This document shows, piece after piece, positions 5,832-19,643 of a DNA stretch of 64,000 bases (its first letter is position 1; each line of letters opens with the position of its first letter). The translations under genes and the position numbers were made by a program. Source of the DNA: Escherichia phage vB_EcoM_H12; sequence record PP952733.1. The stretch is one strand, 5' to 3'. The notes under the pieces were generated by a model. That model saw nothing but the letters and a program-made list of their open reading frames with translations, did no database searches and was not told the origin of the DNA.

Positions 5832-6296
5832 TTACTTTGGATATACACTGTCAAGATAAATGTCAGCTTCCATTCTACGTCTGTTTTTCAAGCCGTTTGA
5901 AGTGACCTTCTTACCTTTGACTGTAATCTTGTTCCACCACTGCATAGCTTCTGCACAACCTACCTTATTACCAGCATTGTGGCGCTTGATAAATGTAGAG
6001 TCCTGCATAGCTGTGATACCAATGTTATATGTTTCACTTACAAGTGCATCGAACTCATTCTGAGAAGTTGGAGCCTTGATAGCTTTGTTCACTGCTGCAA
6101 CAAACTTTTCAACATCTGCGAGAAGATACTGTTCAGCTTGTTCAGCCGTGATTTTCATACCCATCTTAACAGGTTTACCAGAAATACTGGTTGTCCCATA
6201 CCCAATTGTTGGGATTCCAGCAGAGTCTTCGTAAGCCTCTAACTTAAGACCCTCAAAGAACTTAATGGCTTCTAAACCTTTTCTTGAGAGTTGCAT
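5832..6296 (-). CDS. endolysin, GH24 (T4/lambda-type) lysozyme family
   Basis: N-terminal motif LEAIKFFEGLKLEAYEDSAGIPTIGYGTT matches the catalytic Glu / TIGYG signature of phage lysozymes. Confidence 0.8.
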   Translation of the reverse strand: MQLSRKGLEAIKFFEGLKLEAYEDSAGIPTIGYGTTSISGKPVKMGMKITAEQAEQYLLADVEKFVAAVNKAIKAPTSQNEFDALVSETYNIGITAMQDSTFIKRHNAGNKVGCAEAMQWWNKITVKGKKVTSNGLKNRRRMEADIYLDSVYPK

Positions 6297-7429
6297 TATT
6301 CACCTCCTGCTGGATTAACTGTAACTGTTGCCGCATTAGATGTTACCGAACCACCTGCGCCAGTTACTACACAAGTGTAGCTTCCTGCATCAGCAGCGGT
6401 TGCACCTTCTTTGGTGTAAGTTGCAGTAGTTGCGTCTGGGATGTTTTCCTCACCCTTCTTCCACTGATAGCCTGTTGCACCTGTTGCCACAACATTCAGC
6501 GTTAAGGTCTCACCTTCAGTGATTTCTTGATTGGTTGGCTGTTGAGTGATTACAGGAAGAGCATTCACAGTTACTGTCGCTGCATTAGATGTGACTGAAC
6601 CACCTGCACCAGTTACAACACAAGTGTAAGAACCTGCATCTGCTGGAAGCGCACCAGTCTTGCTATAGGTAGCATTTGTAGCTGAAGGGATGTTAGAGCC
6701 ATCTTTCTTCCACTGGTAACCTGTTGCACCTGTTGCAGTCACTTCCAAGCTAATGCTTCCACCCTCATTGATGGTCTGGCTAGAAGGTTGCTTGGTAATC
6801 ACTGGTAGAGCATTAACAGTAACTGTTGCCGCATCTGAAGTAACACTTGTCCCAGCCTCTCCAGATACAACACAAGTATATGAACCAGCATCGGCAGGTA
6901 CTACAGATTGTTTTGTGTAAGTTGCAGAAGTGGCACTGGAGATGTCCTCACCATCCTTCTTCCACTGATATCCAGTGGCGTTATTTGCGATAACGTTTAA
7001 GGTCAGTGTGTCACCCTCATTAACCGTTTGGTTTGTTGGTTGCTGAGTAATTGCGGGTGGCTTAATAGCATCCTTCAGCTTAGCATTCAACATTGAGAAC
7101 GGCTTAACCCTCGCCAACCACTCACAATACACTGTATCAACGTCTTTACCATTGATGATTGCATACTGTAAATCCATGAAGAAATCAGCAGTCCTCATCT
7201 GTGCACCAACACTGTAAAGGAGTTCATCACTAAAAGGGACTTTGTAGTCTGGTTTGTAGTCAAACTTCTCAACCTCTGCAATATCAGCTTCAGGCCAATA
7301 TGAGCTATAGGTGAGTGGTAAAATAGCTTCTTGATATGTTCTAAAATCATATCTCTTACCAGCCTTTACATTTGCGATGAAGCCCTTCACAAATTCTTTG
7401 AAGTCTGGGTAAGTCTTTGCTTTAATCAT
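6296..7429 (-). CDS. protein with N-terminal domain plus three tandem Ig-like repeats (377 aa)
   Basis: Three consecutive ~85-aa repeats (ITQQPTNQ...GYQWKKDG...AGSYTCVV...ATVTVN); N-terminal ~120 aa is paralogous to the adjacent 123-aa protein. Confidence 0.6.
   Translation of the reverse strand: MIKAKTYPDFKEFVKGFIANVKAGKRYDFRTYQEAILPLTYSSYWPEADIAEVEKFDYKPDYKVPFSDELLYSVGAQMRTADFFMDLQYAIINGKDVDTVYCEWLARVKPFSMLNAKLKDAIKPPAITQQPTNQTVNEGDTLTLNVIANNATGYQWKKDGEDISSATSATYTKQSVVPADAGSYTCVVSGEAGTSVTSDAATVTVNALPVITKQPSSQTINEGGSISLEVTATGATGYQWKKDGSNIPSATNATYSKTGALPADAGSYTCVVTGAGGSVTSNAATVTVNALPVITQQPTNQEITEGETLTLNVVATGATGYQWKKGEENIPDATTATYTKEGATAADAGSYTCVVTGAGGSVTSNAATVTVNPAGGE
6299..7072 (-). repeat. 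Three tandem ~258-bp coding repeats (Ig-like domain units)
   Basis: Direct repetition visible in the protein and in the nucleotide sequence. Confidence 0.7.
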
Positions 7430-9507: not shown

Positions 9508-10923
9508 ATGAGCGAATTATTTAAACATGCGCACCTTCATGCAGGTCGAACTGAAAATGGTGCTGTAAACCATACTTCATCAATGTCTGCTCTGGTAGAC
9601 TTCTACAAAGCCGCTGGCTCAAGCCGTAGCAATGTAGAAATCTTACCAGACCTGTTCTACAAAGCTTTGCGTGAGGATGTTGATGTTGCAGTTCGTATTT
9701 TACTGCATATGCGAGATGTACGAGAAGGTATGGGTGAGCGTAAAGCTTTCCGAACTGTTTTACTTCAAGCGATTGAAGATAAAGTTTTAGAGCCTACACA
9801 GGTTCTTCGCATTATGGATAAGATTGCAGAACTTGGTCGTTTTGATGACTTCAAAATCTTCGTAGGTACTCGTTTTGAGACAGATGCCTTCAAACATTTA
9901 GAAGCAGCATTACTAGACCCTGCAACAGCAGGTTTAGCGGCTAAGTGGTTACCACGAGTAAAACCACGCCACAAACAGTTTGTAAAACGTTTCTGTAAGT
10001 TTGCAAACTTAAGTGAGAAGGAGTATCGCACGCTGTTATCTGCACTGTCTGATACGGTTGAGCAAAAAATCTCTGCTAATGAGTTTGGTAAGATTGACTA
10101 CAGCAAGATTCCTTCACTCGCTGCTGCACGTTACCAAAAGCTCTTTAACCGTAAAGATGGGGAACGTTACAAAGCTTACATCGAGTCCCTCTCAAAAGGT
10201 GAGGCTAAGATTAACGCTGGTGCTGTTTACCCATACGATGTGATTAAATCTATCAAGTATGGTAATGCAGATGTTGCTAATGAGCAGTGGAAAGCACTAC
10301 CAAACTGGATGGCAGAAGGTGAGAACATCTTGTGTATGACTGATGTTTCAAGCTCAATGTCTTGGGTGAATCTTGGTTCAATCACTGCCCTTGATATTGG
10401 TGTATCACTTGCTTTGTATGTAGCAGAACGCAACACTGGTTGCTTTAAGAATGAGTTAATGGTTTACTCAACAAACCCTCACTTCATCGAACTGAGTGGT
10501 GATTTACGAAACCGTCATCGTCAGGTAATGCGTCATGTTGAATACGGTTCAACTAACTTACAAGCAGCTTTTGACCGTATTCTTGAGGTAGGTAAGCGAA
10601 ACAACTTGACTCAGAAAGATATGCCAAGTAAGCTTATTATCTTCTCCGATATGGAGTTCAATCAGGTTGATGGAGCTAACGGTCGTACAAACTTTGAAGC
10701 AATTCAGAGTAAGTACAAAAAAGCTGGATACGAAATGCCACAACTAGTATTCTGGTACTTAGCAAACCGTAATGGTACTTGCGAAGTATCTGTTAAGGAT
10801 AATGGTGTAGCAATGGTATCAGGGTTCTCTCCAGCCACTTTAAAAGCTCTGCTTGGTGGTGAGAAGTTTGACCCAATCAGCATAATGCTCAAAGCGGTAA
10901 TGATTGACCGTTACATCTGGTAA
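9508..10923 (+). CDS. vWA-domain protein with MIDAS motif and long helical N-terminal domain; candidate Ro60-like (TROVE-vWA) protein
   Basis: DxSxS MIDAS motif (CMTDVSSSMSW) about residue 277 preceded by hydrophobic strand; about 270-aa N-terminal domain; TROVE-like assignment is inference from domain layout only. Confidence 0.6.
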   Translation: MSELFKHAHLHAGRTENGAVNHTSSMSALVDFYKAAGSSRSNVEILPDLFYKALREDVDVAVRILLHMRDVREGMGERKAFRTVLLQAIEDKVLEPTQVLRIMDKIAELGRFDDFKIFVGTRFETDAFKHLEAALLDPATAGLAAKWLPRVKPRHKQFVKRFCKFANLSEKEYRTLLSALSDTVEQKISANEFGKIDYSKIPSLAAARYQKLFNRKDGERYKAYIESLSKGEAKINAGAVYPYDVIKSIKYGNADVANEQWKALPNWMAEGENILCMTDVSSSMSWVNLGSITALDIGVSLALYVAERNTGCFKNELMVYSTNPHFIELSGDLRNRHRQVMRHVEYGSTNLQAAFDRILEVGKRNNLTQKDMPSKLIIFSDMEFNQVDGANGRTNFEAIQSKYKKAGYEMPQLVFWYLANRNGTCEVSVKDNGVAMVSGFSPATLKALLGGEKFDPISIMLKAVMIDRYIW

Positions 10924-10934
10924 AAAGTTTTAAA

Positions 10935-10970
10935 AAGGGTATTGACAATGTGTTTAATACCCTTTAATAT
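10935..10970 (+). promoter_or_regulatory. Sigma70-like promoter (TTGACA-17-TAATAT) embedded in a 9-bp inverted repeat
   Basis: TTGACA at 10942-10947, TAATAT at 10965-10970; AAGGGTATT / AATACCCTT arms flank the -35 box. Confidence 0.55.
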
Positions 10971-11033
10971 GTTCTACATAGAAACGAAATGAGAGCTTTT
11001 CTAAGATACTGAAAAATATTTTAAAAAAGTTCT

Positions 11034-11062
11034 TGACAACCACTAAAAAATAATGTTAAAGT
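11034..11062 (+). promoter_or_regulatory. Promoter-like element upstream of tRNA array
   Basis: A-tract then TTGACA at 11034-11039; weak -10 (TTAAAG). Confidence 0.4.
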
Positions 11063-11088
11063 GGTTACATAGAGTTTGAAAAGTTTAT

Positions 11089-11165
11089 CTCTGTTTAGCT
11101 CAGCTTGGTAGAGCGTTCCGTTTGGGGCGGTAAGGCCGGAGGTTCAAGTCCTCCAACAGAGACCA
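11089..11165 (+). tRNA. tRNA-Pro (anticodon UGG)
   Basis: Cloverleaf folded by hand: 7-bp acceptor CTCTGTT/AACAGAG, anticodon loop TTTGGGG, T-arm GGAGG-TTCAAGT-CCTCC, CCA encoded. Confidence 0.85.
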
Positions 11166-11172
11166 AATTAAT

Positions 11173-11250
11173 GTTCCAGTAGACAAAATGGTAAAGTCAC
11201 CACTCTTTCAAAGTGGATATTTGAGGGTTCAAATCCCTTCTGGAACGCCA
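11173..11250 (+). tRNA. tRNA-Glu (anticodon UUC)
   Basis: Acceptor GTTCCAG/CTGGAAC, anticodon loop CTTTCAA, T-loop TTCAAAT, CCA encoded. Confidence 0.8.
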
Positions 11251-11257
11251 GTTTTGA

Positions 11258-11330
11258 CAGAAGACCAATTGCAGCAAACTTAATCTTATTCATCTGACAC
11301 GAAATCGGACAAAGAAGAGATTTGGTCTGG
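11258..11330 (+). ncRNA. Stem-closed RNA-like element A (CAGAAGACCAAT...TTTGGTCTGG)
   Basis: Terminal inverted repeat AGACCAA/TTGGTCT enclosing about 50 nt; conserved CAGCAA next to 5' arm; one of four related elements. Confidence 0.4.
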
Positions 11331-11341
11331 TCATTAAGAAT

Positions 11342-11418
11342 TGCGGGTATAGAGAAAGGGCGTCTCACATGTCTCATTAGCATGGTATCGGCAGGTTCGA
11401 CTCCTGCACCCGCCTCCA
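11342..11418 (+). tRNA. tRNA with anticodon CAU (Met or Ile2 type)
   Basis: Anticodon loop CTCATTA, T-arm GCAGG-TTCGACT-CCTGC, CCA encoded; first acceptor pair mismatched. Confidence 0.75.
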
Positions 11419-11424
11419 AATTTA

Positions 11425-11488
11425 CAGAAGACCGTTTACAGCAATATTTATTAAATTTTTAGCGGAAAAATTGAAAGATACGGTCTGG
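11425..11488 (+). ncRNA. Stem-closed RNA-like element B (CAGAAGACCGTT...ACGGTCTGG)
   Basis: Terminal inverted repeat AGACCGT/ACGGTCT; compensatory changes relative to elements A and C. Confidence 0.4.
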
Positions 11489-11501
11489 TAATACTAAACA
11501 T

Positions 11502-11578
11502 GGTTAGGAAGCACATAAGGTATGTGCGGTCGCCTGTTAAGCGAATGGCACAGGGTTCGAATCCCTGACTAACCGCCA
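11502..11578 (+). tRNA. tRNA-Asn (anticodon GUU)
   Basis: Anticodon loop CTGTTAA, T-arm CAGGG-TTCGAAT-CCCTG, CCA encoded. Confidence 0.8.
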
Positions 11579-11587
11579 AATTTAAAT

Positions 11588-11675
11588 GTGTCGTTATCCC
11601 GTAGATGGTAGCGGTGGGGACTGTAAATCCCTTGTCATTGAGACTCGGTAGGTTCGACTCCTACACGGCACACCA
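11588..11675 (+). tRNA. tRNA-Tyr (anticodon GUA), long variable arm
   Basis: Anticodon loop CTGTAAA, about 14-nt variable arm, T-loop TTCGACT, CCA encoded. Confidence 0.8.
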
Positions 11676-11681
11676 AATAAA

Positions 11682-11759
11682 GGTTATGTAGTTTAATCTG
11701 GTTAAAATACTCCCCTGTCACGGGAGATGATGAGGGTTCAAATCCCTTCGTAACCGCCA
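11682..11759 (+). tRNA. tRNA-Asp (anticodon GUC)
   Basis: Anticodon stem CTCCC/GGGAG with loop CTGTCAC, T-loop TTCAAAT, CCA encoded. Confidence 0.8.
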
Positions 11760-11845
11760 AATTATAATAAGTATTTCAAAATGATGTTTGAGAGGGCTAT
11801 TCAGCCCCTCCCTTAAAGAGTTTTTACGAGTATTCTTTAAAGGAG

Positions 11846-11918
11846 CAGAAGACCAAATTCAGCAAGTTACTTAAAATTTCAAGCCAATTTAATTTTGAAA
11901 AATTTAAAACTTGGTCTG
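11846..11918 (+). ncRNA. Stem-closed RNA-like element C (CAGAAGACCAAA...TTGGTCTG)
   Basis: Terminal inverted repeat AGACCAA/TTGGTCT; conserved CAGCAA after 5' arm. Confidence 0.4.
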
Positions 11919-11932
11919 ACTCAACAAATTTA

Positions 11933-12064
11933 CAGAAGACCGTTTACAGCAAAACTTAAACAATCTATTTCTCCGGTAAAGAAAAGGCGAAGGTTCGATT
12001 CCTTCACTCGGCAGATGTCGAGTTGGTGTAATGGTAGCACTTAAGATGATAAACAACGGTCTGG
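11933..12064 (+). ncRNA. Stem-closed element D with permuted tRNA-like module (Y RNA-like candidate)
   Basis: Closing stem AGACCGTT/AACGGTCT; inside, in order: T-arm GAAGG-TTCGATT-CCTTC (11989-12005), 7-bp hairpin ACTCGGC-AGAT-GTCGAGT (12006-12023), D-arm-like TGGTGTAATGGTAGCAC; no anticodon arm or CCA. Confidence 0.45.
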
Positions 12065-12065
12065 T

Positions 12066-12209
12066 AATTATCTTTGTAGATAAGTTATTAAGCTTACTTG
12101 TGAGTATGCGACCACAAAGGGTGAAAGGGTAAATTCTAGATTTAAACCCAACAACGCACATCGCTACAGACCTTAAGCAAGTCTGGGTAGCTTATCTACA
12201 AAGATAATT
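12066..12209 (+). repeat. 19-bp perfect inverted repeat (AATTATCTTTGTAGATAAG / CTTATCTACAAAGATAATT) enclosing about 105 nt
   Basis: Arms at 12066-12084 and 12191-12209 are exact reverse complements; inner hairpin CAGAC-CTTAAGCAA-GTCTG. Confidence 0.6.
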
Positions 12210-12223
12210 TAATGGAAGTGTAG

Positions 12224-12289
12224 CAGAATGGTGATGCGGCAGACTTTTAATCTGACAGGCGATGGGTTCGAATCCCTCCACTTCTACCA
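12224..12289 (+). tRNA. tRNA-Lys (anticodon UUU)
   Basis: Acceptor GGAAGTG/CACTTCT, anticodon loop CTTTTAA, T-loop TTCGAAT (T-stem has two mismatches), CCA encoded. Confidence 0.7.
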
Positions 12290-12293
12290 ATAT

Positions 12294-12370
12294 GGTTCAG
12301 TCGCAGATAAGGTAATGCAGGGGTCTCATAAGCCCTATGAATGTGGGTTCGATTCCCATCTGAACCTCCA
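12294..12370 (+). tRNA. tRNA-Met (anticodon CAU), second copy
   Basis: Anticodon stem with three consecutive G-C pairs, loop CTCATAA, T-arm GTGGG-TTCGATT-CCCAT, CCA encoded. Confidence 0.75.
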
Positions 12371-12371
12371 A

Positions 12372-12447
12372 GCTGGTATAGTTAAGAAGGTTATAACACT
12401 CCCCTGATAAGGGAACATCGGTGGTTCGATTCCACCTACCAGTACCA
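12372..12447 (+). tRNA. tRNA-Ile (anticodon GAU)
   Basis: Anticodon loop CTGATAA, T-arm GGTGG-TTCGATT-CCACC, CCA encoded. Confidence 0.8.
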
Positions 12448-12462
12448 ATTTCAATAAAGTTG

Positions 12463-12491
12463 TTGACATTGAGATGTGACCACTTTATAGT
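12463..12491 (+). promoter_or_regulatory. Sigma70-like promoter TTGACA-17-TATAGT inside tRNA array
   Basis: TTGACA at 12463-12468, TATAGT at 12486-12491, upstream A-tract. Confidence 0.55.
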
Positions 12492-12783
12492 AACTAAAAT
12501 ACTTCATAATATGTATAATTCAAACACCAATACATGAGCGTTAGACGTAACACAATGTGGGGAAATTTGTTGTACATATTCTGAATAGTTTTCGTTGCGT
12601 AGCGTCTATTTTGCAAATTTAAAATAAATGCAAACGACAATGTTTTTCTGGCAGTAGCTTGATAGGCTAAACACCAGTGAGGTCTTCCAATCCCTCATCA
12701 AAGAATTTGGCGTACTAGCCCACGGTATGATTAATAAGGTGGGCATCTTTAAGTACTTTCTAAGAGAGTCTTTAAAGATTAAT

Positions 12784-12860
12784 GCACCCTTAGTTCAATT
12801 GGATAGAGCAACGGTCTTCTAAATCGTTAGTTACAGGTTCGAATCCTGTAGGGTGTGCCA
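12784..12860 (+). tRNA. tRNA-Arg (anticodon UCU)
   Basis: Acceptor GCACCCT/AGGGTGT, anticodon stem ACGGT/ATCGT with loop CTTCTAA, T-loop TTCGAAT, CCA encoded. Confidence 0.8.
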
Positions 12861-13001
12861 AATAGTTAGCAGATTGCTTAGACGACCTTATCGGGTCTCC
12901 GTGTAAGGAGGTGGTCTGTATCTCATGTTTCCAGAACATGTAAATAATCTGAGAAGGGGCTTTACAGTGTTGCGAAAATACGGTAAGCTTCGAATTATAG
13001 T

Positions 13002-13084
13002 GTGGGACGATGTTAAGACTCTAAGGCATGAGCAACGGCCTCCAAAACCGTTTCAAAGGGGTTCAACTCCTCCGTCCCATGCCA
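13002..13084 (+). tRNA. tRNA-Trp-like (anticodon CCA), atypical expanded D region
   Basis: Acceptor GTGGGAC/GTCCCAT, anticodon loop CTCCAAA, T-arm AGGGG-TTCAACT-CCTCC, CCA encoded; about 26 nt between acceptor and anticodon stem. Confidence 0.45.
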
Positions 13085-13097
13085 AAGTCTTATTAGG

Positions 13098-13185
13098 GGT
13101 AGGTAGCGGCTAATGGCAGCCAAACAGTCTTGAAAACTGTTGCCACTGTAGAGATACGGTGAGGGTTCGACTCCTTTACTTACCG
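13098..13185 (+). tRNA. tRNA-Ser (anticodon UGA), long variable arm
   Basis: Anticodon stem ACAGT/ACTGT with loop CTTGAAA, long variable arm, T-loop TTCGACT; CCA not encoded. Confidence 0.75.
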
Positions 13186-13340
13186 CCTAATAAGATTTAA
13201 AACCAAGCTTCATTCGGATGTTGCTTTGGTATCCCTCGTGTATTGTCGTACACAAGTAAAGCACCTAGTAGGTGTCACGGAGAAGAGATAATATCAAGCT
13301 CTCCAAAGGTTCTAGTCACCGGATTAAACAAGACTATGCA

Positions 13341-13361
13341 AAGACCTATTTAGGTCTTTTT
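13341..13361 (+). terminator. Terminator-like hairpin inside tRNA array
   Basis: AAGACCT-ATTT-AGGTCTT followed by TTT; AT-rich stem so probably weak. Confidence 0.4.
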
Positions 13362-13440
13362 AGAGGGCTTCTAAGGTTATTACAGCTTGTTGTGGAACCT
13401 TGTTGCTTAGGTTCTTAGAAGTTCTCTAAAAAGATTTAAT

Positions 13441-13518
13441 GGGAGATTGACGGTAATTGGTAAACCTACCATCCTTAGAAGTTGGTGTTTGAGGGTTCGA
13501 ATCCCTTGTCTCCTACCA
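13441..13518 (+). tRNA. tRNA with anticodon UAG (leucine-type anticodon) but short variable arm
   Basis: Acceptor GGGAGAT/GTCTCCT, anticodon loop CTTAGAA, 5-nt variable loop, T-arm GAGGG-TTCGAAT-CCCTT, A73, CCA encoded. Confidence 0.7.
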
Positions 13519-13525
13519 AATTAAT

Positions 13526-13601
13526 GCAGGTGTAGCAAAATGGTTATGCGGCTGACTCTTAATCAGTAAGACGATGGGTTCAATTCCCTCCACCTGTACC
13601 A
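13526..13601 (+). tRNA. tRNA-Lys (anticodon CUU)
   Basis: Close paralog of the UUU tRNA at 12224; anticodon loop CTCTTAA; CCA encoded. Confidence 0.75.
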
Positions 13602-13605
13602 AATT

Positions 13606-13681
13606 GGGGTCATAGTTTATATGGTTAAAATTCGAGTTTTGCAAACTTGGGAACTGAGTTCAATTCTCAGTGACTCCACCA
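13606..13681 (+). tRNA. tRNA-Ala (anticodon UGC)
   Basis: Acceptor GGGGTCA/TGACTCC, anticodon loop TTTGCAA, T-arm CTGAG-TTCAATT-CTCAG, CCA encoded. Confidence 0.8.
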
Positions 13682-13687
13682 ATTAGT

Positions 13688-13762
13688 GCATCCATAGTTT
13701 AAACGGGAAAATTACAGTCTTCCAAACTGAGGTTGAGGGTTCGATTCCCTCTGGATGCTCCA
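13688..13762 (+). tRNA. tRNA-Gly (anticodon UCC)
   Basis: Acceptor GCATCCA/TGGATGC, anticodon loop CTTCCAA, T-arm GAGGG-TTCGATT-CCCTC, CCA encoded. Confidence 0.8.
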
Positions 13763-13769
13763 AATTAAT

Positions 13770-13845
13770 GCTCCTATCGTATAATTGGCTATTACGGTTG
13801 CCTTGTAAGCAACTTATCAGGGTTCGAATCCTTGTGGGAGCACCA
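13770..13845 (+). tRNA. tRNA-Thr (anticodon UGU)
   Basis: Acceptor GCTCCTA/TGGGAGC, anticodon stem GTTGC/GCAAC with loop CTTGTAA, T-loop TTCGAAT, CCA encoded. Confidence 0.8.
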
Positions 13846-13850
13846 ATTCA

Positions 13851-13936
13851 GAGGTCAAGTGAAAGACCGCTTTGAGTCAACTGAAGACCGTAACAAATCC
13901 CACGGAGTTGAGTTAGCGGCACAACTTCAGACCTCT
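13851..13936 (+). ncRNA. Structured hairpin element between tRNA-Thr and tRNA-Val
   Basis: 6-bp closing inverted repeat GAGGTC/GACCTC around about 75 nt with nested complementary segments (TCAACT/AGTTGA) and a GAAGACCGT motif; no canonical T-loop. Confidence 0.35.
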
Positions 13937-13941
13937 TTCAT

Positions 13942-14016
13942 ACTCGCTTAGTTTATATGGTAAAACATCACCCTTACAAGATGAAGAAAAAGGTTCAAGC
14001 CCTTTAGTGAGTACCA
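13942..14016 (+). tRNA. tRNA-Val (anticodon UAC)
   Basis: Acceptor ACTCGCT/AGTGAGT, anticodon loop CTTACAA, T-arm AAAGG-TTCAAGC-CCTTT, CCA encoded. Confidence 0.7.
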
Positions 14017-14017
14017 T

Positions 14018-14095
14018 GTTCCAGTATCCCAATTGGCAGAGGATGCAAGCTCAAACCTTGTACTAGTGACGGTTCGAATCCGTCTTGGAACACCA
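14018..14095 (+). tRNA. tRNA with anticodon CAA (leucine-type anticodon) but short variable arm
   Basis: Acceptor GTTCCAG/TTGGAAC, anticodon stem GCAAG/CTTGT with loop CTCAAAC, 6-nt variable loop, T-arm GACGG-TTCGAAT-CCGTC, A73, CCA encoded. Confidence 0.7.
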
Positions 14096-14100
14096 ATTTT

Positions 14101-14176
14101 GCAGGATTAGTTCAAATGGATAGAGCAACAGTCTACGAAGCTGTTAATAGGGGTTCGAATCCCTTATCCTGCGCCA
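14101..14176 (+). tRNA. tRNA-Arg (anticodon ACG)
   Basis: Acceptor GCAGGAT/ATCCTGC, anticodon stem ACAGT/GCTGT with loop CTACGAA, T-loop TTCGAAT, CCA encoded. Confidence 0.8.
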
Positions 14177-14195
14177 ATTTAAAGAGGCTATTTAG

Positions 14196-14753
14196 ATGAG
14201 ATATTTGAAGTATGCTTCATGGATTTTCTTAGCTTTGTTAGAGCCATTTGCAGCAATCTTAGCAGTTATCTTAGCACCTTTTGTAGTTCCATTCTACAGT
14301 GAAAAGAAAGGACACTTACCTTTCGGCTTCAGATGGATGGAAACATATGACAACCCAATTGATGGTGATGAAGGTCATGTTGAACGATGGGCTAAGATTA
14401 GAAAGATTGGTAAGCTTGGTGTCTATATGCAGAGAGTTGGTTGGCTCTGGAGAAACAAAGCTTATAACTTCTCTTACCATGTGTTAGGAAGAGATGTAAA
14501 AGATGTTACTAAGTGGAAAGGTAATATCAATGTAAGTTCTAACCCTGAAGATAATCAGACAGGTTATCTCCTAATGTGGAACAGTAATGCTTGGGGATTA
14601 TTCGCTTTTATCCCATCAATTAAAGTCTTTGGTAAGCAATTCTACTGGAGAATTTATGTTGGATGGAAACTTAAAAGTGTTGTTCCAAAAGAAAGAGCAT
14701 TCTCAAGGGAAAGAGTTATGTTGGCATTCTTTATTCATCCACTAAGAAAGTAA
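14196..14753 (+). CDS. putative membrane protein (185 aa) encoded inside the tRNA array
   Basis: AAAGAGG RBS; N-terminal hydrophobic helix (WIFLALLEPFAAILAVILAPFVVPF); Trp-rich. Confidence 0.55.
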   Translation: MRYLKYASWIFLALLEPFAAILAVILAPFVVPFYSEKKGHLPFGFRWMETYDNPIDGDEGHVERWAKIRKIGKLGVYMQRVGWLWRNKAYNFSYHVLGRDVKDVTKWKGNINVSSNPEDNQTGYLLMWNSNAWGLFAFIPSIKVFGKQFYWRIYVGWKLKSVVPKERAFSRERVMLAFFIHPLRK

Positions 14754-14761
14754 AGATTTAA

Positions 14762-14837
14762 AGGGGATTAGTTTACAAGGTTAAAACCTCGGTCTTTGAA
14801 ATCGAAGAAGTTGGTTCAATTCCAACATCCCCCGCCA
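14762..14837 (+). tRNA. tRNA-Gln (anticodon UUG)
   Basis: Anticodon stem TCGGT/ATCGA with loop CTTTGAA, T-arm GTTGG-TTCAATT-CCAAC, CCA encoded; first acceptor pair mismatched. Confidence 0.75.
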
Positions 14838-14839
14838 AT

Positions 14840-14918
14840 GCTCCATTACTCCAATTGGTAGAGAGGCCAGACTTAAAATCTGTGTTATGTATCGGTTCGA
14901 ATCCGATATGGAGTACCA
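14840..14918 (+). tRNA. tRNA with anticodon UAA (leucine-type anticodon) but short variable arm
   Basis: Acceptor GCTCCAT/ATGGAGT, anticodon loop CTTAAAA, about 7-nt variable loop, T-arm ATCGG-TTCGAAT-CCGAT, A73, CCA encoded. Confidence 0.7.
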
Positions 14919-14923
14919 AATTT

Positions 14924-14999
14924 AGCGGTATAGCATAACTGGCAATGCAGCAGTCTCTGAAGCTGTCTTATTAAGGTTCAAATCCTTATGCCGCTGCCA
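14924..14999 (+). tRNA. tRNA-Gln (anticodon CUG)
   Basis: D-stem GCAT/ATGC, anticodon stem GCAGT/GCTGT with loop CTCTGAA, T-loop TTCAAAT, CCA encoded. Confidence 0.7.
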
Positions 15000-15030
15000 C
15001 TTCTAAGGATTCTTACGAGAGTCCTTAAAT

Positions 15031-15106
15031 GTGGCCTTATCATAAATGGTAATGACCCATGCTGTGAACATGGTCTATACGGGTTCAAATCCCGTAGGTC
15101 ACCCCA
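15031..15106 (+). tRNA. tRNA-His (anticodon GUG)
   Basis: Acceptor GTGGCCT/AGGTCAC, anticodon stem CCATG/CATGG with loop CTGTGAA, T-arm ACGGG-TTCAAAT-CCCGT, CCA encoded. Confidence 0.8.
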
Positions 15107-15111
15107 ATTTA

Positions 15112-15188
15112 TAGTCCAAGTAGCTTATATGGTTAAAGCGCGTGTCTGAAAAACATGAGAAGAGGGTTCAAATCCCACTGGACTACCA
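15112..15188 (+). tRNA. tRNA-Phe (anticodon GAA)
   Basis: Acceptor TAGTCCA/TGGACTA, anticodon loop CTGAAAA, T-loop TTCAAAT. Confidence 0.75.
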
Positions 15189-15204
15189 ATTTCAAAGGTG
15201 CTTA

Positions 15205-15939
15205 ATGAAAGAGATGACAGAACAAGGTAAGGAGATTTTTAATCTCTTAAAAACTGGTAAAGGGTTATCTAACCCCCTTATTACTGGTGCAGCAGTTCTC
15301 GGTGGAACAGTAGCTGCCTCTACATCACTTGTAAGCTCTATTAGCTCTGTAACAGACCCTACAATAAAGGATAAGCTTATTGCTGCTGGACTTACAACAG
15401 TTCTGCTTAACAGCTTTACCACAAGTCTGACAAGCACTACATCAACTACTAAAACACTGACAGATTACGGTCAAAAGTCCATTGATGAGTTTTCATCACG
15501 TATGCAGGTAGCAAAAGGTTATTCTAATGTTATGGGTGCAGCAGGTGAACAAGTTGGCTGTACACCATTTAGTGGTATTATGGGTGTTGCTACAGAGTAC
15601 GGTCAAAAAGCTATTGACACAATTAACAGCACACTAGACGGTGTTAATGATGTATTAAGTGACTTACAAGACGCTATTGACAAAGGTCTTGATACTATTT
15701 CTGATTTAGCTAACCAAGCTGTTAGTAAGATTAATGAAGGTATCTCGAAGATTACAGCTTATGCAGATGAAGTTGTGCAGATGATTGAAGAAGAAGCTGC
15801 CCTTATTGCAGAGTACCTTAAAACAAATATCAATGGGTTCTTAGCAGGTATCTTACCAGACTGGTTTGATGATGCTTGTAAAACTGGTGTAATTGATACT
15901 ATTGCAACACCAGAGATGAAGAACGCATTACAGAAATAA
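15205..15939 (+). CDS. hypothetical Ser/Thr-rich protein (244 aa) inside the tRNA array
   Basis: Start moved from track 15142 to ATG 15205 (AAAGG RBS) so it does not overlap tRNA-Phe; low-complexity S/T segment. Confidence 0.5.
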   Translation: MKEMTEQGKEIFNLLKTGKGLSNPLITGAAVLGGTVAASTSLVSSISSVTDPTIKDKLIAAGLTTVLLNSFTTSLTSTTSTTKTLTDYGQKSIDEFSSRMQVAKGYSNVMGAAGEQVGCTPFSGIMGVATEYGQKAIDTINSTLDGVNDVLSDLQDAIDKGLDTISDLANQAVSKINEGISKITAYADEVVQMIEEEAALIAEYLKTNINGFLAGILPDWFDDACKTGVIDTIATPEMKNALQK

Positions 15940-15941
15940 AT

Positions 15942-16034
15942 GGAAGATTAACCCTAAAAGGTAAGGGAGCAGTTTGCTAAACTGCCAGTAGCTGAGAAAT
16001 CGGTGTACCAGTTCAAGTCTGGTATCTTCCTCCA
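15942..16034 (+). tRNA. tRNA-Ser (anticodon GCU), long variable arm
   Basis: Acceptor GGAAGAT/ATCTTCC, anticodon stem GCAGT/ACTGC with loop TTGCTAA, long variable arm, T-arm ACCAG-TTCAAGT-CTGGT, CCA encoded. Confidence 0.8.
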
Positions 16035-16038
16035 ATTT

Positions 16039-16114
16039 GAATCCGTGACAGAAATGGATATGTACCTGTCTGCAAAACAGGTTTATAAGGGTTCGAGTCC
16101 CTTCGGATTCTCCA
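16039..16114 (+). tRNA. tRNA-Cys (anticodon GCA)
   Basis: Acceptor GAATCCG/CGGATTC, anticodon stem CCTGT/ACAGG with loop CTGCAAA, T-loop TTCGAGT, CCA encoded. Confidence 0.8.
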
Positions 16115-16276
16115 AGTTATTTTACTCTCTCTCAATTAAAATAATAATAATGCCCTGCTATAAGTATTCTTCCTTTCGCTACCGAAGAGTATTTTTAGAC
16201 AGGGCTTTTTTACAGAGTTATACTTTATAAGAAGACTTATACAGTATGTCTCTGACGTACATTGTGGTTTCTCCTT

Positions 16277-16300
16277 GACGGTCTCTGTACCGTCTTTTTT
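16277..16300 (+). terminator. Rho-independent terminator after the tRNA array
   Basis: GACGGT-CTCTGT-ACCGTC hairpin followed by TTTTTT. Confidence 0.7.
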
Positions 16301-16336
16301 AAGGGGAAACATGGTTAAATATTTGGAGAAAACATA

Positions 16337-16537
16337 ATGAGCGAGACCGTTTATAAAGAACTTTATGAAGCTAATAAGAAGCTAGAATTTATGCAGAATA
16401 CTATCATGGCAATTGCAGACAGATTATCTGTAGCAACAGGTATTGATATTAAAGAAGCATCTATGGATGCACTTCTTGATGCTGTTGATGCAAAGTTCGA
16501 AGTTAAGAAAGAAGAGACTGCTACAGACTCTGAATAA
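16337..16537 (+). CDS. hypothetical small acidic protein (66 aa)
   Basis: GGAG RBS; just upstream of large terminase; too small to call small terminase. Confidence 0.4.
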   Translation: MSETVYKELYEANKKLEFMQNTIMAIADRLSVATGIDIKEASMDALLDAVDAKFEVKKEETATDSE

Positions 16538-16558
16538 TTCTATTTGCGGAGGTGCTTA

Positions 16559-18160
16559 ATGGACTTAAATGCTGTTAAGCAGAAGCGAGTGGAAGATGTT
16601 AGGAAAGTCCTAGCTGGAGAGTTGGGGCTTTCTGATGAAGTAAAAGAAATTATCAAATCATTCGGTAAAGACCCCTCTAAATTCCTTCCAACTCAAATTC
16701 TGACTTTATTAAGATACACACCAGACCAAGTTAGACTTATCTTCAAATTGATGACTGATAAGAACTATGTAGCCCCTCAGCCGGGTTCTCAAGAGGTCTT
16801 TTTAAATACTAATGCTGACTTGGTTCTCTATGGTGGTGCTGCTGGTGCTGGTAAGACTGCTGCATTGTTAATGGACTCTTTAAGGTTTATTGATGACCCT
16901 AACTATAACGCTGTCTATTTCCGTCGAAACACAACACAGTTACAAGGTGGTTTGTGGCCTGCTGCAAAGAAACTATTTGGTAAGTTTGGTGGGGTTCCTC
17001 ACGAGCAGAAGATGACTATCACATTCCCTTCTGGGGCAACTATCAAGTTTACCTATCTAGAACTTGAAAAGCACGCTGAAGGTCATCAGGGTATTGAATA
17101 CTCAGCCATTTACTTTGACGAAGGTACACACTTCTCTGCTTCACAGATTTCATACCTACAGACTCGTCTACGTTCTGGGGCTGAAGGTGATTCATACATG
17201 AAGATTTCTATGAACCCAGACAGAGACCACTTTATTTATGATTGGGTAGAACCATTCTTAGATGAAGAAGGTTACCCAGACCCTGAAAAGTGTGGTCGTA
17301 TTCGTTGGTATGTAATGAATGATGGTGTTATGGTTTCTGATTGGGAGAGAGACAAGATTCTTGAAATGTTTCCTCTTGAGATTCCTCAAACATATACATT
17401 CATCTCTGGTACGATTGATGATAACCCAATTCTTGACTTCTTAGAACCTAAATATCGTGGTAAGTTGGAAAACAACACCCCTGTAAACGTTGCAAGACTT
17501 CGTTTCGGTAACTGGAAGGCTCGTGCAGAAGGTTCAAACTATTGGCAAAGACAATGGTGTGAAATTGTTGATTCACTCCCAGAAGATGTATTCGATGTCA
17601 GAGCATGGGACTTAGCAGCAACTTTACCATCTGAGATTAACCCTAATCCAGACTGGACAGCAGGTGTTAAGATGGGTAAATCTAAAAAAGACGGTTGCTA
17701 TTATATCATTGATGTAGTAAGATTTAGAGATAGACCCTCTGGAGTCGAAACACAAATTAATTTGACTGCTGAAAGTGACGGTAAGCGAACTGGTATTTTT
17801 ATCCCTCAAGACCCAGGCGCTGCTGGTAAATCCTACGCAACATCCCTCATCAGGAAACTTGCCGAGAAAGGTTATCGAGCAAGAGCTAAACCAACAAATA
17901 AAGATAAAGTTACCCGATTTGCGGGGTTTTCTGCTGCTTCTGAAGCTGGACTTGTAAAAGTCTTGAGAGGTAGTTGGAACGAAGCTTACTTCCAAGAACT
18001 TGAAGGTTTTTGTGGTGATGGTAAAACTAAAGATGACCAAGTGGATGCTACCAGTGATGCTTTCAACAGTCTTAACGAAGTTAAATTATTCAAGCCACCA
18101 TCAATGGGTGCTCACACAGACTTAGTGAGAGGAAACCCATATGAGGGGCTTAGACGTTGA
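16559..18160 (+). CDS. terminase large subunit
   Basis: Walker A LYGGAAGAGKT; start moved to ATG 16559 preceded by GGAGG (track starts at TTG 16544). Confidence 0.85.
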   Translation: MDLNAVKQKRVEDVRKVLAGELGLSDEVKEIIKSFGKDPSKFLPTQILTLLRYTPDQVRLIFKLMTDKNYVAPQPGSQEVFLNTNADLVLYGGAAGAGKTAALLMDSLRFIDDPNYNAVYFRRNTTQLQGGLWPAAKKLFGKFGGVPHEQKMTITFPSGATIKFTYLELEKHAEGHQGIEYSAIYFDEGTHFSASQISYLQTRLRSGAEGDSYMKISMNPDRDHFIYDWVEPFLDEEGYPDPEKCGRIRWYVMNDGVMVSDWERDKILEMFPLEIPQTYTFISGTIDDNPILDFLEPKYRGKLENNTPVNVARLRFGNWKARAEGSNYWQRQWCEIVDSLPEDVFDVRAWDLAATLPSEINPNPDWTAGVKMGKSKKDGCYYIIDVVRFRDRPSGVETQINLTAESDGKRTGIFIPQDPGAAGKSYATSLIRKLAEKGYRARAKPTNKDKVTRFAGFSAASEAGLVKVLRGSWNEAYFQELEGFCGDGKTKDDQVDATSDAFNSLNEVKLFKPPSMGAHTDLVRGNPYEGLRR

Positions 18161-18167
18161 TAGCTAG

Positions 18168-19643
18168 GTGAGAAGAATGGCAGATATTACAGAAACACAA
18201 GAAAGCTTACCACCATTTAGAATGGGTGAAGTAGGTTCTTTGGGTCTGAAGGTTAAGAATGGAAGAATCTATGAAGAACCTCGTCAGGCACTAAGGTTCC
18301 CTGAAAGTATTAAAACTTTCCAATTAATGATGCGTGACCCTGCTGTAGCAGCATCTGTAAATATTATTAAGATGTTTGTCAGAAAAGTCAACTGGAGATT
18401 CGTACCTCCAAAGGGAAAAGAGCAAGACCCTAAAATGCTTGAAAGAGCAGACTTCTTTAATTCTTTAATGGATGACATGGAGCATGATTGGGCAGATTTT
18501 ATTAACTCTGTAATGTCATTCTGCACTTATGGGTTCTGTGTTAACGAAAAGGTTTATAAGAAACGTCAGGGTAAAAAAGGAAAGTACCAGTCAAAATTTG
18601 ATGATGGTCTAATTGGGTGGGCTAAATTACCAATCAGAAACCAGTCAACGCTTGATAAGTGGTATTTTGACGAAGATTTTAGAAAAGTTACTGGTGTTAG
18701 ACAGAATCTGAGAAATGTTTCACATATTGCTGGAGCAATCAATCTCGGAGAAAGACCACTAACAAGAAAACTTCCACGAGCTAAATTCATGCTGTTTAAG
18801 TATGATGATGAGTATGGTAACCCAGAAGGTCGTTCACCATTACTTAATGCTTATGTACCGTGGAAATATAAAGTACAGATTGAAGAGTATGAAGCTGTTG
18901 GTGTTTCAAGAGACTTAGTAGGTATGCCAAAGATTGGTTTACCACCAGACTATCTGGATGAAAATGCAGAGCCTGAAAAGAAAGCTTTCGTACAATACTG
19001 CAAAACTGTTGTTAATGACATGATTGCTAATGACAGAGCAGGCTTAATCTGGCCTAGATATATCGACCCAGAAACTAAAGAGGATATCTTTGAGTTCTCA
19101 TTAGTTTCTAGACAGGGTGCTAAAGCATATGATACAGGTTCTATCATTGACAGATATTCCAAGCAAATTATGATGGCATTTATGTCAGATGTTCTTGCTA
19201 TGGGTCAGTCAAAATATGGTTCATTCTCTCTTGCAGATTCTAAGACAAGCCTGTTAGCAATGTCAGTAGATATCCTGCTGAAGCAAATTAAGAACGTAAT
19301 TAACCGTGATTTAGTTGCACAGACTTATGCTCTTAATATGTGGGATGATGAAGAACATGTACAAATCACATACGATGATATCGAAACTCCAGACCTTGAA
19401 GCAATTGGTTCTTATATTCAGAAGACTGTTGCAGTAGGTGCTTTGGAAGTTGACAAAGAGCTATCTAACAAACTTAGAGAGCATATTGGTCTTCCTCCTG
19501 CTGATGAGTCTCAGCCAGTATCTGAAAAGCTTTCTCCAAATAGCCAAAGCCGTTCAGGAGATGGTTATAAGACCGCTGGAGAAGGTACTGCAAAGACACC
19601 TTCAGCGAAAGACCCAAGCACAGCAAATAAGGCAAATAAATAA
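18168..19643 (+). CDS. portal protein (putative)
   Basis: About 490-aa ORF directly after large terminase; track start is GTG, alternative ATG at 18177. Confidence 0.7.
   Translation: MRRMADITETQESLPPFRMGEVGSLGLKVKNGRIYEEPRQALRFPESIKTFQLMMRDPAVAASVNIIKMFVRKVNWRFVPPKGKEQDPKMLERADFFNSLMDDMEHDWADFINSVMSFCTYGFCVNEKVYKKRQGKKGKYQSKFDDGLIGWAKLPIRNQSTLDKWYFDEDFRKVTGVRQNLRNVSHIAGAINLGERPLTRKLPRAKFMLFKYDDEYGNPEGRSPLLNAYVPWKYKVQIEEYEAVGVSRDLVGMPKIGLPPDYLDENAEPEKKAFVQYCKTVVNDMIANDRAGLIWPRYIDPETKEDIFEFSLVSRQGAKAYDTGSIIDRYSKQIMMAFMSDVLAMGQSKYGSFSLADSKTSLLAMSVDILLKQIKNVINRDLVAQTYALNMWDDEEHVQITYDDIETPDLEAIGSYIQKTVAVGALEVDKELSNKLREHIGLPPADESQPVSEKLSPNSQSRSGDGYKTAGEGTAKTPSAKDPSTANKANK

Follow-up and report, generated by a model that had tools for sequence, protein, structure and literature searches.

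Two known protein-coding genes in the tRNA array of a Felix O1-like phage: a predicted DUF7338 membrane protein, some relatives of which adjoin lysis genes, and a conserved protein encoded upstream of the terminase

The closest described counterparts of the two genes considered here are ORF48 and ORF49 of phage Felix O1. These open reading frames (ORFs) were catalogued in 2010, the former as a 'CHP; membrane protein' of 185 amino acids with an isoelectric point (pI) of 10.1 and the latter as a 'CHP' of 244 amino acids with a pI of 4.3, and both were positive by reverse transcription PCR (RT-PCR) with a maximum at 5 min after infection (PMC3185647). The timing given in that table is unreliable, because its 5-min class also holds capsid gene 58 (PMC3185647). 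The corresponding genes of Escherichia phage vB_EcoM_H12 lie within a tRNA gene array in the 64,000-nucleotide stretch of record PP952733.1 that was analyzed (hereafter the window), and are termed ORF A (14196-14753, + strand, 185 amino acids) and ORF B (15205-15939, + strand, 244 amino acids). ORF A is 96% identical to Felix O1 ORF48 (NP_944875, 'phage conserved protein / membrane protein'), occupies the same slot between tRNA-Arg and tRNA-Gln, and is the same gene. ORF B is 95% identical to Felix O1 ORF49 (NP_944879) and 82% identical to Sf14 gp26, and all three are found in the same place before tRNA-Ser/Cys and the gene for the large terminase subunit (TerL). ORF A and ORF B are therefore genuine, mutually unrelated phage genes that were already known, and any function assigned to either is inferred. 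Our best reading of the whole, which we consider about as apt to be right as wrong, is that ORF A is an accessory membrane factor linked to lysis and that ORF B is a protein of the morphogenesis module, both residing within a tRNA unit. What is new is not the two-gene feature but the link between DUF7338, the family to which ORF A belongs, and phage lysis cassettes.

The window derives from a Felixounavirus, a Felix O1-like myovirus with 97% identity to E9 and CL1. Region 11000-18200 has 95-98% identity to its counterparts in over 200 sequenced phages (among them E9, CL1, Felix O1, wV8 and VpaE1), and neither gene changes position across more than 200 Felix O1-like genomes. ORF A begins with an ATG codon 19 nt after tRNA-Arg(acg) (14101-14176, + strand), which was called by ARAGORN, scores 59.8 bits with the Rfam tRNA model and forms the upstream edge of the slot; the gene ends 8 nt before tRNA-Gln(ttg) (14762-14837, + strand; ARAGORN). 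Direct reading of the 19-nt spacer, ATTTAAAGAGGCTATTTAG (14177-14195, + strand), reveals the Shine-Dalgarno sequence AAGAGG 8 nt ahead of the start codon. Five tRNA genes found with ARAGORN and Rfam, those for Gln(ttg), Leu(taa), Gln(ctg), His(gtg) and Phe(gaa), separate the two ORFs (14762-15188, + strand). ORF B, which also starts with ATG, lies 16 nt beyond the last of these, tRNA-Phe(gaa) (15113-15188, + strand; ARAGORN). Its spacer, ATTTCAAAGGTGCTTA (15189-15204, + strand; again by direct reading), carries AAGGTG 4 nt ahead of the ATG, and its stop codon is followed after 2 nt by tRNA-Ser(gct) (15942-16034), which together with tRNA-Cys(gca) closes the array (15942-16114, + strand; ARAGORN and Rfam). 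A first-pass annotation, made from the letters of the window alone, had set both ORFs at these positions between + strand tRNA genes and had credited each with a plausible ribosome-binding site, and on both counts it was correct. It had also named conservation in relatives as a check on the genes; both are conserved, and the transcripts of the Felix O1 orthologs mentioned above are on record (PMC3185647). Among about 28 related loci, the differences in ORF A and ORF B fall mostly at third codon positions, with ratios of nonsynonymous to synonymous polymorphism (pN/pS) of 0.087 and 0.146, respectively. Purifying selection acts on both genes.

The product of ORF A is basic (pI 10.0) and, as the first-pass annotation had described it, rich in Trp and equipped with an N-terminal transmembrane helix. 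Specifically, it contains 10 Trp (5.4%), 10 Tyr and 14 Phe residues and a single hydrophobic segment at residues ~7-33 (nt ~14214-14294), where the Kyte-Doolittle average over 19 residues reaches a maximum of 2.38. The protein matches Pfam family DUF7338 (PF24027) over its full length (residues 1-184; E 6e-62; 209 bits against a cut-off of 27) and likewise phrog_2143 (E 3e-81). An alignment of 30 homologs with 33-86% identity keeps the N-terminal helix and defines three strongly conserved motifs, W-x-E-T-Y-D-N-P-I-D-G-D-x-G-H, V-x-W-L-W-R-N-K-A-Y-N-F and R-x-Y-x-G-W-K-L-K, together with 16 invariant residues (P28, T50, D52, G57, W83, W85, R86, N87, Y90, G98, G109, G123, R152, G156, W157 and K158). 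The AlphaFold2 model (pLDDT 94.4, pTM 0.84) has a long helix at residues 2-33, four short helices and a five-stranded sheet, and no solved structure matches it. In the same 30 homologs the charge is about +2.8 on the N-terminal side of the helix and about -0.1 after it, and therefore, under the positive-inside rule, an N-in/C-out topology is predicted in which the C-terminal alpha/beta domain is periplasmic. The conserved domain has a median pI of 9.8 across the family. ORF A would then be a bitopic inner-membrane protein that presents a basic, aromatic-rich alpha/beta domain toward the periplasm. An exhaustive profile search recovered 889 DUF7338 representatives at E <= 1e-3, nearly all of them stand-alone proteins of 160-200 amino acids. 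A fusion of DUF7338 to a tail-fiber C-domain (P0034), carried on a 1.1-kb contig, was treated as a chimera.

The distribution of ORF A is patchy. Its carriers among the Ounavirinae are Felixounavirus and the SUSP phages. Only 7-9 bp separate tRNA-Arg from tRNA-Gln in Moogle and Sf14, with no ORF between them, and the gene is therefore precisely absent from the slot; the corresponding loci of Erwinia M7 and Yersinia P778 lack it as well. Homologs with ~55-62% identity occur in many T4-like phages, among them RB43 (ORF080w) and JS98 (orf136), both at ~60%, as well as Klebsiella, Enterobacter and Yersinia phages. Remoter homologs are found in Vequintavirinae (TH18), Aeromonas T4-likes, jumbo phages, the Pseudomonas Otagovirus VCM, and metagenomic lambdoid and Mu-like phages. 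In SUSP phages (L039, L046), ORF A is 97% identical in amino-acid sequence to that of the present phage, whereas the adjoining ORF B is only 85% identical, a pattern that hints either at a recently exchanged ORF A cassette or at a much stronger constraint upon it. Taken together, ORF A is a mobile accessory gene traded among phages. The suggestion in the first-pass annotation that both ORFs are accessory genes thus stands for ORF A, which is absent from Mooglevirus as well as from Erwinia M7 and Yersinia P778, but fails for ORF B, which is fixed upstream of TerL.

The most informative observations on ORF A come from the genomic neighborhoods of its family. We examined 85 DUF7338 loci, grouped them into 29 clusters at 80% identity, and, taking a single representative of each cluster, recorded tRNAs and flanking ORFs. 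In 9 of the 29 clusters, lysis genes are no more than three ORFs from DUF7338, and peptidoglycan hydrolases are the commonest Pfam match among the 145 neighboring ORFs that were scanned. At one locus (L030:5001-5564) the gene order is holin_2, PF00959 lysozyme, Rz-like spanin, LysC, DUF7338 and terminase. DUF7338 is followed by a PF00959 lysozyme at L103:3995-4579, by a PF00959 lysozyme and an Rz-like protein at L082:3992-4507, and by an abutting lysozyme in Aeromonas phage phiAS5, where a tail-fiber gene precedes it. A small transmembrane protein and a GH108 endolysin come next at both L019:2296-2874 and L108:4004-4537, and a 114-amino acid coiled-coil protein and an M15 peptidase do so at L029:3875-4387. 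Elsewhere the neighbor is a Phage_holin_4_1 holin (L092:3983-4540, representing a 16-locus cluster) or an 85-amino acid transmembrane protein followed by a SleB-like hydrolase (L089:3956-4522). L015:2989-3516 is counted among these nine loci in or beside lysis cassettes. If a background of 5-10% per locus is assumed, the binomial probability of at least 8 lysis-linked clusters among 29 is between 6e-5 and 6e-3. The association of DUF7338 with lysis cassettes is statistically supported and was previously unreported. Because four unrelated families (PF00959, GH108, M15 and SleB-like) are represented among the adjacent endolysins, the link is to the lysis process or to the envelope rather than to one enzyme.

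Since DUF7338 stands beside endolysin and holin genes in compact lysis cassettes, we infer that ORF A is an accessory lysis factor. That it has some role of this kind, as a lysis-associated accessory membrane factor, seems to us only slightly less probable than the opposite. The protein would act at the envelope in a holin-like, holin-regulating or otherwise lysis-modulating manner, and presumably not as the sole holin. Phages with compact cassettes would keep the gene beside endolysin and holin, and large virulent myoviruses with scattered lysis genes would have it lodged in the tRNA region. A broader version of this proposal, which we put forward tentatively and regard as rather unlikely, is that DUF7338 constitutes an unrecognized and widespread class of phage lysis proteins that are signal-anchored and periplasmic, have a fold of their own, partner with any endolysin, and serve as non-canonical holins, for instance in phages of the phiAS5 type that have no T, or as holin regulators; in large myoviruses the gene would have moved into tRNA arrays, its mRNA being formed via tRNA processing. 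With ~900 representatives at 50% identity and a confidently predicted fold unlike solved structures, the family is a tractable candidate for a lysis or envelope factor and, if its role in lysis is true, would be a new component of Gram-negative phage lysis.

Several observations weigh against a role in lysis. No lysis neighbor was seen in 20 of the 29 DUF7338 clusters, and in the window itself ORF A is 7.9 kb from the endolysin gene and on the opposite strand. The RT-PCR maximum of Felix O1 ORF48 falls at 5 min rather than at a late lysis time, albeit in the unreliable table noted above (PMC3185647). Junctions between tail-fiber and lysis genes, and the ends of cassettes, are also typical places for unrelated cargo genes. 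Finally, the invariant polar residues of the family seem closer to a ligand-binding or catalytic site than to a typical holin.

A more specific proposal is that ORF A is the holin of this phage, acting in the manner of the class III holin T of T4 (Phage_holin_T) to free the soluble PF00959 endolysin through the inner membrane. The two proteins fall in the same topology class, in that T has one N-terminal transmembrane domain, an N-in/C-out orientation and a periplasmic domain of ~150 amino acids, and T is likewise endolysin-adjacent in some phages. Unlike T, ORF A has no sequence or profile similarity to this holin (the DUF7338 family profile aligns with T4 T at an hhalign probability of 0.1%), coexists with it and is dispensable in sister genera. 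DUF7338 is found together with T in Escherichia phage AV114 and Yersinia phage P8, with Phage_holin_2 in L030 and with Phage_holin_4_1 in L092. DUF7338 is also the sole Pfam match of ORF A, to the exclusion of any holin family, even though homologs in Mushroom, HMD-P10, EcoM2, ESCO50, JLBYU32 and HP1 bear a 'holin' label, an untested annotation. When features of holins are considered, ORF A has at least one transmembrane domain, namely its one hydrophobic helix, and linkage to an endolysin is seen in 9 of the 29 homolog clusters and not in this window, where the PF00959 endolysin gene (Phage_lysozyme; 5832-6296, - strand; Pfam E 6.7e-41) lies at the distance given above. ORF A is not kept in all lytic relatives that are without another holin, as judged from the Moogle, Sf14, Erwinia M7 and Yersinia P778 loci. 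Moogle and Sf14 are lytic without it, and a putative holin is reported in the Moogle genome announcement. The authors of the Felix O1 study named gp79, 116, 118, 119 and 131 as holin candidates and did not include gp48, and the early RT-PCR maximum of ORF48, in the unreliable table noted above, would also speak against a late lysis role (PMC3185647).

One result in favor of a holin function comes from phiAS5, whose 225-kb genome has no annotated holin and in which no T homolog was detected genome-wide (L113-L117), the best matches being spurious antisense fragments. The asiA-adjacent slot that contains e and t in IME13 is occupied in phiAS5 by DUF7338, lysozyme and ORF0118 (ORF0116-0118; L114:35672-37025), and endolysins adjoin DUF7338 in many other phages. 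However, ORF0118 is an equally good holin candidate. It is a protein of 112 amino acids with one transmembrane domain and a coiled coil, like the small proteins beside DUF7338 in L019 and L029. A small protein of this design (96-114 amino acids) adjoins DUF7338 and the endolysin in three unrelated phages (L019:2877-3167, L029:4398-4742 and L114:36687-37025), and it is possible that this recurrent protein is a partner of DUF7338 or the actual holin. On balance, we consider it quite improbable that ORF A is the holin of this phage.

A different proposal removes ORF A from lysis altogether. The gene could encode an early guard or modifier of the envelope that provides superinfection exclusion, protection from lysis-from-without or receptor masking, in which case its adjacency to lysis and tail-fiber genes would merely reflect insertion sites for cargo. 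Proteins of T-even phages such as the RI antiholin, Sp (spackle) and Imm offer a precedent, being membrane-anchored or periplasmic, non-essential and often early, and modulating lysis or entry. These proteins (83-97 amino acids) are much smaller than ORF A and no homology to them was detected, such that the likeness would be one of functional analogy only. An envelope guard agrees with the accessory and horizontally mobile nature of ORF A, with the predicted periplasmic location of its conserved domain, with its residence in a tRNA unit that is probably early, and with the 5-min RT-PCR maximum. DUF7338 is moreover directly 3' of tail-fiber genes in L019, L029 and phiAS5, and its invariant Asp, Arg, Lys, Tyr and Trp residues suggest that an anionic ligand in the envelope could be bound. 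In contrast, DUF7338 follows spanins and is far from tail fibers in L030, and its neighbors in L092, L089 and L108 are holins and hydrolases rather than receptor-binding proteins. ORF A also lacks similarity to known exclusion or defense proteins: searches with PADLOC and NCBIfam returned 0 families each, and Pfam returned only a DUF. Superinfection exclusion by the membrane protein, which the first-pass annotation had put forward, consequently receives no specific support. Its other suggestion, envelope modification, is plausible given the predicted periplasmic domain, but the sole functional signal is the adjacency to lysis genes. We keep an early envelope guard as a live, if unlikely, alternative, marginally less unlikely than the holin.

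The position of ORF A among tRNA genes raises the question of whether the protein could work on tRNAs, in their processing, protection or use. Same-strand tRNAs are within 2.5 kb of DUF7338 in 8 of the 29 clusters, spanning five phage lineages, with the gene in or downstream of tRNA clusters in several T4-like groups. It lies inside the array in 5 clusters, namely those of Felixounavirus, TH18, two T4-like groups and VCM (28% identity). The loci in which DUF7338 stands in or directly after an array comprise the window (14196-14753), L016:2995-3552 (Pseudomonas phage VCM), L017:3001-3558 (TH18), and, among T4-likes, L069, L074 and L005:5001-5555 (JS98); they represent no fewer than five myovirus lineages that are unrelated to one another. 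The basic character of ORF A (pI ~10) would also suit an RNA-related function. Nevertheless, a direct role on tRNAs is very improbable, because the domain is predicted to lie in the periplasm. No fold that binds nucleic acids was detected for ORF A, and 21 of the 29 clusters have no nearby tRNA, many of them in phages without arrays. Furthermore, tRNA regions are known plastic zones that also gather homing endonucleases, and three HNH endonuclease genes share the same array in Felix O1 (PMC3185647). The simplest account of why DUF7338 recurs in arrays is that tRNA regions are plastic zones of large virulent phages. From the spacer lengths, a gene that lands between tRNAs might gain transcription and possibly 5' and 3' end formation through tRNA processing.

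ORF B presents a different picture. Its predicted product of 25.6 kDa is acidic (pI 4.4) and is indeed Ser/Thr-rich, as first described, with Thr at 11.5% and Ser at 8.6% summing to 20%. It matches Pfam DUF7217 (PF23854) over residues 8-243 (E 1.5e-88; 296.9 bits against a cut-off of 29) and phrog_2114 (E 5e-110). An N-P-L motif (residues 23-25), Cys119 and Cys225 are invariant. The AlphaFold2 model (pLDDT 82) is an up-down bundle with long helices at residues 25-47, 65-103, 128-160 and 165-207, and PDB sequence searches returned only compositional coiled-coil noise. The fold would be an acidic four-helix bundle, apolipoprotein-like and of the lipid-interacting type. Apolipophorin-III, the MLKL four-helix bundle (4HB), HeLo-like domains, CC-NLR and IncA, which are amphipathic four-helix bundles that open on lipid, may be listed as close known systems. 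A variant of ORF B with 265 amino acids and a GTG start (15142-15939), annotated for example in pinkbiff_38, would overlap tRNA-Phe by 47 nt; we rejected this start because the conserved N-terminus backs the ATG at 15205.

Several labels that have been or could be applied to ORF B were likewise rejected. An integral membrane protein is disfavored since the only candidate segment, a Gly/Ala/Ser-rich stretch at residues 25-43, is weakly hydrophobic (Kyte-Doolittle 1.62) and forms a bundle-packed helix in the model; the 'putative membrane protein' label of Sf14 gp26 derives from a CATH apolipoprotein-fold match. The GTP-binding label of phrog_289 does not carry over because the match is confined to positions 262-499 of the 500-position profile, its C-terminal half, and the sequence has no Walker A motif G-x(4)-G-K-[ST] and no match to a GTPase family in Pfam. 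A tail tape-measure function rests on weak local PHROG matches (E 3e-5 and worse), does not suit a protein of 244 amino acids encoded upstream of TerL, and is filled by a separate gene in relatives (VpaE1_065); tape-measure proteins range from hundreds to more than 1000 amino acids, and their genes stand between those for tail-tube chaperones and those for the baseplate. Finally, ORF B is not the small terminase subunit, given that its homologs in Ackermannviridae are far from terminase genes and that its model forms a long helical bundle.

All Ounavirinae genera that were examined carry the gene, and TerL follows it at a distance of a few hundred bases in Felixounavirus, Suspvirus, Mooglevirus, Kolesnikvirus (Erwinia M7) and Yersinia P778. 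Full-length homologs with ~26-29% identity occur throughout Ackermannviridae, where they stand beside a gp3-like tail-completion gene and, as in LIMEstone1 ORF129 (~27% identity over the full length), share the invariant residues of ORF B. ORF B is thus a lineage-conserved gene and not an inserted accessory; the tRNAs surround ORF B rather than the reverse. It ties Ounavirinae to Ackermannviridae through a shared, uncharacterized and possibly virion-associated gene that is unaccounted for in recent cryo-electron microscopy (cryo-EM) atlases.

By position, ORF B would stand at the start of the packaging and morphogenesis module, and its product could be a low-copy or disordered virion-associated or assembly protein, a proposal that has a reasonable prospect of being true but that we rate somewhat below an even chance. 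The relevant evidence is that LIMEstone1 ORF129 (25.03 kDa, 'unknown structural protein') was identified in purified virions from 2 peptides (18% coverage), and that all such virion-detected proteins are stated to have structural counterparts in ViI (PMC3296691). Virion detection is documented for this distant LIMEstone1 homolog only. Against an assembly or virion protein, the LIMEstone1 evidence amounts to two peptides from a homolog ~27% identical to ORF B, and the ortholog is missing from the whole-phage shotgun list of Felix O1 (PMC3185647). The homolog is also not in the table of structural gene products of Sf14, and ORF B is not among the PDB chains, where near-identical portal chains (9mt4 and 9c39) were found; 9c39 is the neck of Sf14, a Felix O1-like virion reconstruction.

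The failure to appear in the shotgun list of Felix O1, the structural table of Sf14 and the PDB virion models is what one would expect if ORF B instead acted inside the cell early in infection, for example as a helical bundle that associates with lipids or membranes during host takeover, with its pre-terminase position being historical. The RT-PCR maximum of Felix O1 ORF49 at 5 min points in this direction (PMC3185647), as does the location of ORF B on the 5' side of the terminator-like hairpin that divides the array from the packaging genes. In opposition are the detection of the LIMEstone1 homolog in purified virions (PMC3296691), the proximity of ORF B-type genes to packaging or tail-completion genes in two phage families, and the invariant cysteines, which fit an extracytoplasmic or virion environment. 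We consider an early intracellular protein rather doubtful, and prefer the assignment of ORF B to the morphogenesis module.

A published statement that appears to settle this matter was not accepted as evidence. In section 2.7 and the abstract of the Felix O1 study, a 51 kDa virion band is assigned to 'gp49', perhaps the sheath, and the sheath-sized gp63 (48.9 kDa) is listed separately in the shotgun table (PMC3185647). The size does not agree with the 25.6 kDa of ORF49, the sheath assignment is a speculation, and gp63 is a separate protein. The statement probably reflects a slip in numbering, since carried over into lists of Felix O1 structural proteins. A disulfide-linked dimer of ORF B (2 x 25.6 kDa) may, however, run at ~51 kDa.

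The feature is ordinary for its phage group, in that both genes are carried by every Felix O1-like genome and were described in 2010 without function. No mention of DUF7338 or DUF7217 was found in the literature searched, neither gene is mentioned in the text of the PhageMaP essentiality map of Bas63, neither protein is mentioned in the Bas63 cryo-EM paper, the text on mass spectrometry of VpaE1 virions is silent on detection of ORF46 or ORF47, and nothing relevant was found in the RNA sequencing literature on Felixounavirus. The labels 'holin', 'membrane protein' and 'GTP-binding domain' that circulate for these genes are untested and are partly contradicted here. This matters because Felix O1-like phages serve in diagnostics and biocontrol.

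The array that houses both genes comprises 26 tRNA genes at 11089-16114, all on the + strand (ARAGORN), and most were recovered by an Rfam scan at E <= 0.01. The short gaps on either side of each ORF suggest that ORF A and ORF B would be co-transcribed with the tRNAs from host-type promoters, and that their mRNAs might be translated on the precursor or freed by 5' and 3' processing of the tRNAs. A consensus scan revealed a candidate sigma-70-type promoter (TTGACA-18 nt-TAAAGT with TG; 11033-11062, + strand) just 5' of the first tRNA, which would be the transcription start of the array. A second candidate of this type (TTGACA-17 nt-TATAGT, 11/12 matches; 12463-12491, + strand) is internal to the array, and a terminator-like hairpin with a T-run (16277-16294, + strand) separates the last tRNA from the packaging genes. 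The number of promoter-like sites in the array region is not above the expectation from shuffled sequences, which leaves co-transcription and punctuation by tRNA processing, as proposed above, to the geometry of the genes and counts against this part of the reading. Beyond the hairpin are a 66-amino acid acidic ORF directly 5' of TerL (phrog_4397; Felix O1 ORF51; 16337-16537, + strand), the TerL gene itself (16559-18160, + strand; by annotation of relatives), which opens the packaging and structural module, and the portal gene, which follows TerL from 18168 and matches PDB chains 9mt4_B and 9c39_A. A 75-amino acid ORF over tRNA-Ser and tRNA-Cys (16003-16230, + strand), equivalent to Felix01p101 and VpaE1_048, is probably a spurious call.

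Some neighboring features deserve mention. Directly 5' of the array is a gene for a 471-amino acid protein (DUF7788/DUF2828, 'RNA-binding protein'; 9508-10923, + strand) that corresponds by position and annotation to Bas63 gp130, which reportedly resembles Ro60 and counteracts the Ppl defense system (PMC11482910). The authors of that work speculate that some 'tRNAs' of the array are Y-RNA-like (PMC11482910). Our Rfam scan of the array returned tRNA matches only and found no Y-RNA-like or other non-tRNA RNAs. The ARAGORN tRNA-Met (11342-11418) was unrecovered by Rfam at E <= 0.01 and has a low Cove score in Felix O1, and tRNA-Tyr (11588-11675) has a sub-threshold match to the tRNA-Sec model as its only Rfam match and is a pseudo-tRNA in Felix O1. 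A hairpin with a 12-bp stem (10934-10965), situated 3' of the Ro60-like gene, overlaps a promoter-like site (TTGACA...TAATAT) and corresponds to the bidirectional terminators t42/t43 of Felix O1. Lastly, the gene adjoining the endolysin (6296-7429, - strand) encodes a 377-amino acid protein with three Ig-like domains that is probably a Hoc-like hexamer decoration protein, and the cryo-EM papers on Bas63 and Sf14 place the gene for such a protein outside the structural module.

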